Assembly (NCBI RefSeq): GCF_003334765.1
Contig: NZ_QOWT01000002.1
Length of the DNA: 64,000 nt
Strand: one strand, 5' to 3'
Source: Escherichia coli
GTDB lineage: Bacteria > Pseudomonadota > Gammaproteobacteria > Enterobacterales > Enterobacteriaceae
In this document: piece by piece, positions 8,545 through 48,322 of the stretch
How positions within the stretch are numbered: position 1 is the stretch's first letter
Layout: each line of letters opens with the position of its first letter
Notes under the pieces: model-generated
Seen by the model: the letters and a program-made list of their open reading frames with translations, nothing else
The model's database searches: none
Told to the model about the DNA's origin: nothing
Position numbers and translations under genes: made by a program

Positions 8545-8680
8545 CCTGCCATAACGTGAAGAAGCAATGACCTGGTGGTCCGTGACTTCCCTACGCTGGC
8601 ATTATCCAGATCAGGTGATACGGGTATTTCTCAGCCTTCACGCAGAAGGGCACCCCGAGTCGTTTGGTTGCGATGATAAA
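8545..8680 (-). promoter_or_regulatory. TPP (thi-box) riboswitch in the thiM 5' leader
   Basis: Minus strand reads GGGGUGCCCUUCUGCGUGAAGGCUGAGAAAUACCCGUAUCACCUGAUCUGGAUAAUGCCAGCGUAGGGAAGUCACG, the classic E. coli thiM TPP aptamer with the CUGAGA core, immediately upstream of the thiM AUG. Confidence 0.88.
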
Positions 8681-8758: not shown

Positions 8759-9031
8759 TTATTTGATATATGAATCCAGCACCTTCAGAACGACATCCAG
8801 ATCTTCTTCACGTTTTAGCTCATCCCCCTGGTGAACGATGTGTTCCGTCAGATGACCTTTAATCACTTCCCGCATCAGACCGTTTACCGCGCCACGGATA
8901 GCAGCAATCTGTTGTAAAACTGCAGCGCATTCGTGCGGCTCGTCGAGCATTTTCTTGAGCGCCACGACCTGGCCCTGAATCTTACTGGCACGCGCTTTCA
9001 GTTTCTGTTTATCACGGATTGTATGAGACAT
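8759..9031 (-). CDS. rcnR: Ni/Co-responsive transcriptional repressor (CsoR/RcnR family)
   Basis: 90-aa [50 protein letters not shown]...; divergent from rcnA. Confidence 0.9.
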
Positions 9032-9079
9032 GGCAACACCTGGTTAACAAGAATATGAAAAATCATAGCACTATTAATC

Positions 9080-9114
9080 TACTGGGGGGTAGTATCAGGT
9101 ACTGGGGGGGAGTA
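9080..9114. promoter_or_regulatory. Tandem RcnR operator sites (TACT-G6/7-N-AGTA) in the rcnR-rcnA divergent promoter region
   Basis: tactggggggtagta (9080-9094) and tactgggggggagta (9100-9114) seen directly; match the published RcnR recognition motif. Confidence 0.8.
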
Positions 9115-9151
9115 GAATCAGATTGCCGAATTAATACTAAGAATTATTATC

Positions 9152-9976
9152 ATGACCGAATTTACAACTCTTCTTCAGCAAGGAAACGCCTGGTTCTTCA
9201 TCCCCAGCGCCATCTTACTTGGTGCGCTTCATGGCCTGGAACCAGGGCACTCAAAAACGATGATGGCGGCGTTTATCATCGCCATCAAAGGCACCATTAA
9301 ACAAGCGGTGATGCTCGGACTGGCAGCAACTATTTCGCATACCGCAGTGGTCTGGTTAATTGCCTTTGGCGGGATGGTGATCAGCAAGCTCTTTACTGCT
9401 CAATCAGCAGAACCGTGGCTCCAGCTGATTTCCGCAGTGATCATTATTAGCACCGCGTTCTGGATGTTCTGGCGTACCTGGCGCGGCGAACGCAACTGGC
9501 TGGAGAATATGCACGGGCATGATTATGAGCATCATCATCACGATCACGAACATCACCACGACCATGGACATCATCACCATCACGAACATGGCGAGTATCA
9601 GGATGCCCATGCACGAGCCCATGCCAATGACATTAAACGACGCTTTGATGGTAGAGAGGTCACCAACTGGCAAATTTTGTTATTTGGCTTAACCGGTGGC
9701 CTTATCCCCTGCCCGGCAGCAATTACCGTGCTGTTGATATGCATTCAGTTGAAAGCCCTGACACTGGGCGCAACACTGGTCGTCAGTTTCAGCATTGGCC
9801 TGGCGTTAACGCTTGTCACCGTAGGCGTTGGCGCAGCAATCAGCGTTCAGCAGGTCGCAAAACGCTGGAGCGGATTTAACACTCTCGCTAAACGCGCCCC
9901 CTATTTTTCCAGTCTGTTGATTGGCTTAGTCGGTGTGTATATGGGCGTACATGGCTTCATGGGCATAATGCGATAA
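9152..9976 (+). CDS. rcnA: Nickel/cobalt efflux permease with histidine-rich cytoplasmic loop
   Basis: 274-aa ORF; multi-TM; His-rich segment HGHDYEHHHHDHEHHHDHGHHHHHEHGEY. Confidence 0.9.
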   Translation: MTEFTTLLQQGNAWFFIPSAILLGALHGLEPGHSKTMMAAFIIAIKGTIKQAVMLGLAATISHTAVVWLIAFGGMVISKLFTAQSAEPWLQLISAVIIISTAFWMFWRTWRGERNWLENMHGHDYEHHHHDHEHHHDHGHHHHHEHGEYQDAHARAHANDIKRRFDGREVTNWQILLFGLTGGLIPCPAAITVLLICIQLKALTLGATLVVSFSIGLALTLVTVGVGAAISVQQVAKRWSGFNTLAKRAPYFSSLLIGLVGVYMGVHGFMGIMR

Positions 9977-10194: not shown

Positions 10195-10533
10195 ATGACC
10201 ATTAAAAATAAGATGTTGCTGGGTGCGCTTTTGCTGGTTACCAGTGCCGCCTGGGCCGCACCAGCCACCGCGGGTTCGACCAATACCTCGGGAATTTCTA
10301 AGTATGAGTTAAGTAGTTTCATTGCTGACTTTAAGCATTTCAAACCAGGGGACACCGTACCAGAAATGTACCGTACCGATGAGTACAACATTAAGCAGTG
10401 GCAGTTGCGTAACCTGCCCGCGCCTGATGCCGGGACGCACTGGACCTATATGGGTGGCGCGTACGTGTTGATCAGCGACACCGACGGTAAAATCATTAAA
10501 GCCTACGACGGTGAGATTTTTTATCATCGCTAA
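10195..10533 (+). CDS. rcnB: Periplasmic Ni/Co homeostasis protein RcnB (YohN)
   Basis: ORF 10015..10533; start moved to internal ATG giving MTIKNKMLLGALLLVTSAAWA (signal peptide), about 112 aa. Confidence 0.82.
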   Translation: MTIKNKMLLGALLLVTSAAWAAPATAGSTNTSGISKYELSSFIADFKHFKPGDTVPEMYRTDEYNIKQWQLRNLPAPDAGTHWTYMGGAYVLISDTDGKIIKAYDGEIFYHR

Positions 10534-10560
10534 AAAAAGCCCCCTCATCATGAGGGGGAA
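10532..10560. terminator. Intrinsic terminator hairpin between convergent rcnB and yehA (T-tract on minus strand)
   Basis: GCCCCCTCA-tca-TGAGGGGG stem flanked by an A7 run on plus strand (U-tract for the minus-strand yeh transcript). Confidence 0.5.
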
Positions 10561-27523: not shown

Positions 27524-27692
27524 TATACTCTAAATAATTCAAATTGGTCCGATCCGGCGCAACGTCCCAATGGCCTGGATTATAAATCTCATTATCTTAA
27601 TTGCAACGGGGTCCAGCCGTGGTTATAATTCGTTCGTTGGAACACGATGTTGCACAGGCTGCGGTGTTGGGCCTGAAAATAGTAAATAAAAG

Positions 27693-27719
27693 AACCTGCC
27701 TCACCAGCAGGTTTTTTTA
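27693..27719 (+). terminator. Intrinsic terminator after yehK
   Basis: CCTGC-ctcacca-GCAGG stem followed by TTTTTTT. Confidence 0.6.
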
Positions 27720-48149: not shown

Positions 48150-48322
48150 GATGAGCATTCAGATAGTGGTTCACGCGCACGGGTTGCGCACCGCCGGAGT
48201 AAGGATTTACTGAGGCTAGCGACGCCATCATAACGAGCAAAAAGTGCGATCGTCAAAGGAGAATCGTGAGGAAATGCTGCATTGCTGACATTTACGCCAG
48301 CAATGCAACGTCAAAGAACTTT

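Follow-up and report, generated by a model that had tools for sequence, protein, structure and literature searches.

The intergenic region between rcnA and rcnR of E. coli has been described as carrying two TACT-G6-N-AGTA motifs that together form the operator of RcnR (PMC3902906, citing Iwig & Chivers, 2009, J Mol Biol 393:514), and the same motif and two-site arrangement are repeated in PMC7055735 and PMC7105576, both of which cite that study. In the account given by PMC3902906, one RcnR tetramer binds each type 1 site with 1:1 stoichiometry and contacts the inverted TACT/AGTA arms through the minor groove, and circular dichroism is taken to indicate that the G tract adopts an A-form-like duplex. 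The flanking DNA is described as contacted non-specifically and wrapped by the protein (literature citing Iwig & Chivers, 2009). Binding of apo-RcnR to the two sites of the intergenic region is reported in PMC7055735, which describes RcnAB as regulated by RcnR and cites Blaha et al. (2011, Biochimie 93:434) for the finding that rcnA and rcnR are both repressed through a shared operator. [quoted passage not shown] PMC4528141 and PMC5709419, searched for the RcnR:DNA stoichiometry on a two-site fragment, yielded only the weaker binding induced by metal.

The type 2 CsoR operators of copper sensors, for example that of Streptomyces lividans CsoR, are bound by proteins of the same fold family as RcnR and, like the RcnR operator, are described as G-tract pseudopalindromes of A-form-like character. 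They differ in that each contains two short G/C tracts broken by 2–4 bases, has its arms spaced by approximately 11 bp and binds two tetramers, whereas an RcnR type 1 site binds one (PMC3902906). Other type 1 operators of the CsoR/RcnR family, e.g., the FrmR and DmeR-like sites, have other arm sequences and other effectors.

In the window, by which we mean the entire 64,000-nucleotide stretch of E. coli DNA analysed here, positions 9080–9114 constitute, with a probability of roughly 95%, the tandem operator to which RcnR, the Ni(II)/Co(II) sensor of E. coli, binds, and no observation speaks against this reading. Its parts are the following.

9080..9094, no strand assigned: RcnR operator site 1 (exact published motif; conservation; N = T in 15 of 15 sequences)
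9095..9099, no strand assigned: linker TCAGG (fixed length, free sequence except T9095)
9100..9114, no strand assigned: RcnR operator site 2 (exact published motif; 15 of 15 positions invariant in 15 sequences)

Read on the plus strand, the rcnR-proximal site 1 is TACTGGGGGGTAGTA, of the form TACT-G6-T-AGTA, and the rcnA-proximal site 2 is TACTGGGGGGGAGTA, of the form TACT-G6-G-AGTA, which reads as a run of seven G. Both match TACT-G6-N-AGTA without a single mismatch, which bears out the match to the known RcnR motif that an initial annotation of this DNA had proposed; its coordinates and both 15-mers were also exact. The sites had been placed 20 bp apart, and this is the correct start-to-start distance, the 15-mers themselves being separated by the 5 bp of TCAGG (9095–9099). 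The G6 and G7 runs and the 7-bp arm spacing fit the definition of a CsoR/RcnR type 1 operator given in PMC3902906, and the same paper, in what it reports on the E. coli RcnR operator, agrees with the G-tract (A-form-like) mode of recognition that the initial annotation had suggested.

The annotation had also pointed to a difference in tract length between the two sites. The run lengths stand, since the run of site 1 has six bases (9084–9089) followed by T9090 and that of site 2 has seven (9104–9110), but the reading as a tract-length difference does not, because the TACT and AGTA arms are 7 bp apart in both sites. With a G at the N position of site 2 the homopolymer is lengthened while the TACT–AGTA spacing is unaltered, and the G6/G7 contrast is therefore better read as a substitution at N, where site 1 has T and site 2 has G, with unchanged half-site spacing.

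A search of both strands of the 64-kb window for TACTGGGGGGNAGTA, allowing up to two mismatches, returned these two sites only. The expectation from dinucleotide-preserving shuffles is 0.15 matches, and two or more were found in none of 100 shuffles. Both sites fall inside the 120-bp gap at 9032–9151 that separates the divergent genes rcnR and rcnA:

8759..9031, minus strand: rcnR, Ni(II)/Co(II)-responsive repressor of the CsoR/RcnR family, 90 aa (NCBIfam, RefSeq, H-C-H-H)
9152..9976, plus strand: rcnA, Ni/Co efflux pump with His-rich loop, 274 aa (NCBIfam, RefSeq)
10195..10533, plus strand: rcnB, accessory gene downstream of rcnA (RefSeq annotation)

The divergent rcnR–rcnA setting, likewise proposed earlier, is upheld by the NCBIfam scores and RefSeq annotation of both flanking genes. 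Specifically, the rcnR product matches the NCBIfam RcnR equivalog NF011613 over its full length with 197 bits (cut-off 138), the identical protein WP_000019944.1 is annotated as RcnR by RefSeq, and its translation carries H3, C35, H60 and H64, the H-C-H-H ligand fingerprint that is described as setting RcnR apart from FrmR and CsoR (PMC11672702). The rcnA product reaches 557 bits against the NCBIfam nickel/cobalt efflux transporter NF007454 (cut-off 195), which places a divergent Ni/Co efflux gene beside the operator as its target. The rcnB product has no NCBIfam HMM match, and its identity as the RcnB accessory subunit rests on the RefSeq annotation of the corresponding CDS. The gene order is that of an ordinary E. 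coli chromosome, with thiD-thiM, a TPP riboswitch, rcnR / rcnA-rcnB and then yehA-D, and the region is annotated rcnR/rcnA in 5,364 of 5,426 complete E. coli genomes.

Several further features of the neighbourhood and of the window may be recorded here. A match to the rcnR–rcnA intergenic region is absent from 62 to 80 of the 5,426 complete genomes, and one copy of the region is found on a plasmid. The annotated length of rcnA varies by strain, being 825 nt here and 837, 858 and 864 nt elsewhere (L004, L005 and L012), most likely by expansion or contraction of a repeat in the His-rich loop (HHHHDHEHHHDHGHHHHH). The TPP riboswitch (8571–8667, minus strand, 71 bits) lies upstream of thiM-thiD and adjoins rcnR; it is expected and annotated by RefSeq. 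Between the convergent genes rcnB and yehA, a GC-rich hairpin, CCCCCTCATGATGAGGGGG, at 10540–10558 was scored as a terminator on the minus strand and may act for the two genes alike. Farther away, the yehK–yehL gap contains a match to the Rfam OrzO-P type I antitoxin RNA (27643–27718, plus strand, 101 bits) that is unannotated in the reference genome, and no small hydrophobic ZorO-like toxin was obvious among the nearby ORFs of at least 20 aa. An Rfam Peptidase-S11 RNA motif lies at 48154–48234 (minus strand, 73 bits), and Rfam naRNA4 elements (REP-derived nucleoid-associated RNA) lie at 646–716 and 59883–59960, both on the minus strand.

An E. coli K-12 genome (H148) is identical to the window over 9066–9118, and its rcnR–rcnA operator, at the same locus, agrees with that of the window in flanking genes, in both sites and in their spacing, so that the operator itself shows no differences. 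From some other E. coli the window strain differs only at the flanking SNP positions 9054 and 9119, outside the sites. Given the identity to K-12 and the published motif, the feature is the published RcnR operator; it is already known and adds nothing new to biology.

Among the E. coli genomes sampled, substitutions occur at 9042, 9054, 9096, 9098 and 9119, none of them inside a 15-mer and two of them (9096 and 9098) in the linker. That none of five sampled SNP positions should fall within 30 of 120 bp has a chance probability of about 0.24, which is not significant by itself. Because polymorphism within E. coli cannot alone show constraint, we turned to a cross-species scan. Species-representative genomes were scanned for a degenerate DNA pattern encoding QQIAAIRGA in rcnR, which gave at least 120 loci; these were picked through the rcnR coding sequence only, to avoid selecting on the operator. 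Each ORF was extracted with its upstream DNA, and 15 sequences were aligned with MAFFT.

Among the loci listed, every orthologue with at least 84% protein identity and upstream DNA covering both sites has two sites 20 bp apart. These are from Escherichia albertii, Pseudocitrobacter, three Citrobacter, two Cedecea and three Enterobacter species, Mangrovibacter, Erwinia, Tatumella and one MAG. Two Vibrio and one Shewanella among the loci listed (68–74% identity) likewise carry both sites, and a Hafnia locus ends within the linker, so that site 1 alone is visible. The orthologous loci listed have an rcnA-like start (M..F..LLQQGN) downstream of the operator. In all but four of the listed two-site loci the E. 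coli 15-mers are exact: site 1 is TACTGGGCAGTAGTA in Mangrovibacter and TACTAGGGGGTAGTA in one Vibrio, site 2 has an extra G (G8) in one Enterobacter (L089), and one MAG has a third site in addition to TACTGGGGGATAGTA. The 20-bp start-to-start spacing is constant in every listed species with both sites, from Escherichia to Vibrio and Shewanella.

The alignment places the constraint on the bases of the sites and not on the surrounding DNA. In the 15 aligned sequences, drawn from the loci listed, no variation is seen at 27 of the 30 operator positions, compared with 5 of the 90 positions outside the sites (Fisher p = 1.3e-18), a contrast that MAFFT may exaggerate by misaligning the flanks and so understating their conservation, although the exact-string matches to the sites are independent of any alignment; horizontal transfer of the rcnRA module could also inflate the apparent conservation, though the flanks are fully diverged. 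All 15 positions of site 2 are invariant, as are 12 of the 15 in site 1, the other three being kept in 14 of 15 sequences. Linker positions 9096–9099 vary freely and T9095 is invariant. All 15 sequences, which span at least 10 genera, have T at the N position of site 1 and G at that of site 2.

In the more distant homologues among the loci listed (at most 62% identity), the tandem pair is replaced by one site whose N is T, C or G, by a pair with another spacing, or by a different palindrome; L140, L133 and L099 are RcnR homologues of the single-site kind. In two Aeromonas loci (L025 and L052) and one from Alcaligenaceae (L050) the tandem pair gives way to one TATACT(A/G)GGGTATAGTATA palindrome, in which the G tract is short. 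Their RcnR homologues show 57–59% identity, and the opposite gene starts with a Cys/His-rich N-terminus, an arrangement that suggests a different pairing, perhaps DmeR/DmeF-like. A separate conserved stretch, CTAAGAATTATTATC at 9136–9151, lies just before the rcnA start codon and outside the operator; it is partly kept across Enterobacteriaceae as CTAAGAAT.ATT.TC and may be a translation-initiation or leader element.

The same pattern of conservation bears on the idea that the two G runs fold into a G-quadruplex or some other non-B structure that controls transcription without a protein. Two runs of six and seven G do lie on one strand within 27 bp, but the standard intramolecular form needs four such runs and only two are present, the TACT/AGTA arms, which a quadruplex does not require, are as conserved as the runs themselves, and the published circular dichroism is interpreted in PMC3902906 as an A-form-like duplex. 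We therefore reject this explanation as almost certainly wrong, and retain the reading of both sites as RcnR operators.

Conservation outside the two sites points to two putative promoter elements:

9062..9070, minus strand: extended –10 element of the putative rcnR promoter, 5'-TGCTATGAT-3', pattern TGnTAnnnT (conservation pattern)
9113..9118, plus strand: –10 hexamer of the putative rcnA promoter, TAGAAT (TAnnnT conservation pattern)

The first of these combines two invariant positions, A9062 and T9066, with three (A9067, C9069 and A9070) that 14 of 15 sequences retain; the neighbouring columns vary. In the second, T9113, A9114 and T9118 are invariant and 9115–9117 vary, giving TAGAAT, TAGATT, TATGAT or TACAAT in the 15 sequences. 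The AGTA arm of site 2 ends in T9113 and A9114, which are also the first two bases of TAGAAT, and a distance of exactly 17 bp separates TAGAAT from an invariant TAGTAT (9090–9095, completed by T9095) on its upstream side. Of the five invariant positions that lie outside the sites, four can be assigned to promoter elements in this way; T9078, 2 bp ahead of site 1, fits none. Judged from the sequence, this arrangement suggests that site 2 would extend over the spacer of the rcnA promoter and two bases into its –10, and that site 1 would cover the –35 regions of both promoters, an overlap that would fit a shared operator repressing both genes. A simple sigma-70 consensus scan did not report either of these elements. 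The matches that it gave instead, one on the plus strand ending 1 nt before the rcnA ATG and one on the minus strand inside the rcnR coding sequence, are implausible as real promoters. A literature search found no mapped transcription start sites for rcnA or rcnR.

These overlaps raise the question whether the conserved block might be mere core promoter DNA, the –10 and –35 elements of two back-to-back promoters, with no repressor site at all. The sharing of bases between the AGTA arm of site 2 and the –10-like TAGAAT, together with the invariant TAGTAT 17 bp upstream, speaks for such an explanation. Sigma-70 elements, however, need neither two invariant runs of six to seven G nor palindromic TACT/AGTA units repeated at 20 bp. 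Moreover, footprinting and calorimetry, as described in PMC3902906 and PMC7055735, assign the sites to RcnR, and the operator is reported to confer Co-dependent repression on a foreign promoter (PMC7105576). We consider a promoter without a repressor site extremely improbable and reject it in favour of an RcnR operator that would overlap the putative promoters.

We also counted the natural variants of the operator, as exact matches to the 53-nt core 9066–9118 or its variants, in the 5,426 complete E. coli genomes:

native operator core: 4,817 genomes, exact
site 2, one G fewer: 126 genomes
site 2, one G more: 105 genomes
site 1, one G more: at least 27 genomes (91-nt context; a lower bound, because the 91-nt query spans the 9119 SNP)
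site 1, one G fewer: 19 genomes

The initial annotation had proposed comparing tract lengths across strains, and the outcome is that the native G6/G7 core is by far the usual state and that about 5% of genomes carry one G more or one G fewer. Most of these differences are in site 2, the G7 run varying approximately five times more than the G6 run; the plus-G variant of site 1 is carried, for example, by L003. A gain or loss of one G in site 2 changes the TACT–AGTA spacing to 8 or 6 bp. The genomes with one G fewer in site 2 include several O111 strains (11128, RM9322, 95NR1 and 95JB1), and those with one G more include O121 strains and three ST2747 records, a grouping that suggests that some of these alleles are inherited and linked to lineage. 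Homopolymer errors are common in long-read-only and 454-era assemblies. Many of the variant assemblies are of these kinds, and some of the G-run variants may therefore be sequencing errors.

Could the G runs then be a slipped-strand, phase-variable switch, in which the gain or loss of one G alters the promoter geometry and toggles rcnA and rcnR? The existence of one-G variants in both directions at both sites, and the roughly fivefold higher variability of the longer run, are in line with such a switch. Nevertheless, the core is exact in 4,817 genomes, and the run lengths are unchanged in 13 of the 14 other species among the loci listed (Enterobacterales, Vibrio and Shewanella), which is the opposite of what is expected from a hypervariable contingency locus. 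Runs of six to eight G are also short for efficient slippage, and errors in assemblies of the kinds just mentioned may contribute to the count of variants. Phase variation is thus very unlikely, and we reject it; the conserved runs are better accounted for as parts of the RcnR operator.

Two rearranged operators were seen in addition. In E. coli O111:H8 strain 8E (L010, NZ_CP077465.1, locus 1433–1571) the 20-bp operator unit is duplicated in tandem, so that the 139-bp intergenic region contains three RcnR-type sites, TACTGGGGGGTAGTA twice and then TACTGGGGGGAGTA. In E. coli L3Cip3 (L019, NZ_CP062211.1) 3 bp are deleted, so that site 2 reads TACTGGGGGGTAGAA and both the AGTA arm and the putative rcnA –10 are damaged; this may be a natural operator-defective allele.

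Binding of apo-RcnR is published for the identical K-12 sequence, as described in PMC3902906, PMC7055735 and PMC7105576. At the present locus, metal-free tetrameric RcnR would bind each TACT-G6-N-AGTA site, one tetramer apiece, touching the TACT and AGTA arms via the minor groove and reading the A-form-like shape of the unbroken G tract, and it would also contact the flanking DNA non-specifically and wrap it. The fixed spacing of 20 bp, about two helical turns, would bring the two tetramers to much the same side of the helix. If the rcnA and rcnR promoters stand back to back, as the conservation pattern indicates, occupation of both sites would block RNA polymerase at both promoters, since site 2 would overlap the rcnA –10 and site 1 the –35 regions of the two promoters. 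Occupancy of this single shared operator would in this way repress rcnA, together with rcnB, as well as rcnR itself, and Ni(II) or Co(II) on RcnR would lower its affinity for DNA and release transcription of the efflux pump.

A more speculative extension is that neither the N base nor the length of the G run is neutral. With T conserved at N in site 1, where it completes the invariant TAGTAT 17 bp upstream of the putative rcnA –10, and G conserved in site 2, the sites might differ in affinity or in how they overlap the promoters, so that rcnA and rcnR would be released at different metal levels, and the site 2 alleles that recur in some Shiga-toxin lineages, minus one G in O111 and plus one G in O121, could shift the set-point of Ni/Co efflux. 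We regard this as possible and rather doubtful; the one line of support found for tuning of affinity by N is the invariance of the T/G asymmetry in 15 of 15 sequences.

The value of the locus is that of a positive control, in which an experimentally defined regulatory site was located to the base from raw sequence. The analysis adds that both sites are very deeply conserved, as are the 20-bp spacing and the T/G difference between them, and that they probably overlap two putative back-to-back promoters; it also provides counts of the natural variants in G-run length. These natural variants are ready material for work on the roles of half-site spacing and of the N base in RcnR affinity.
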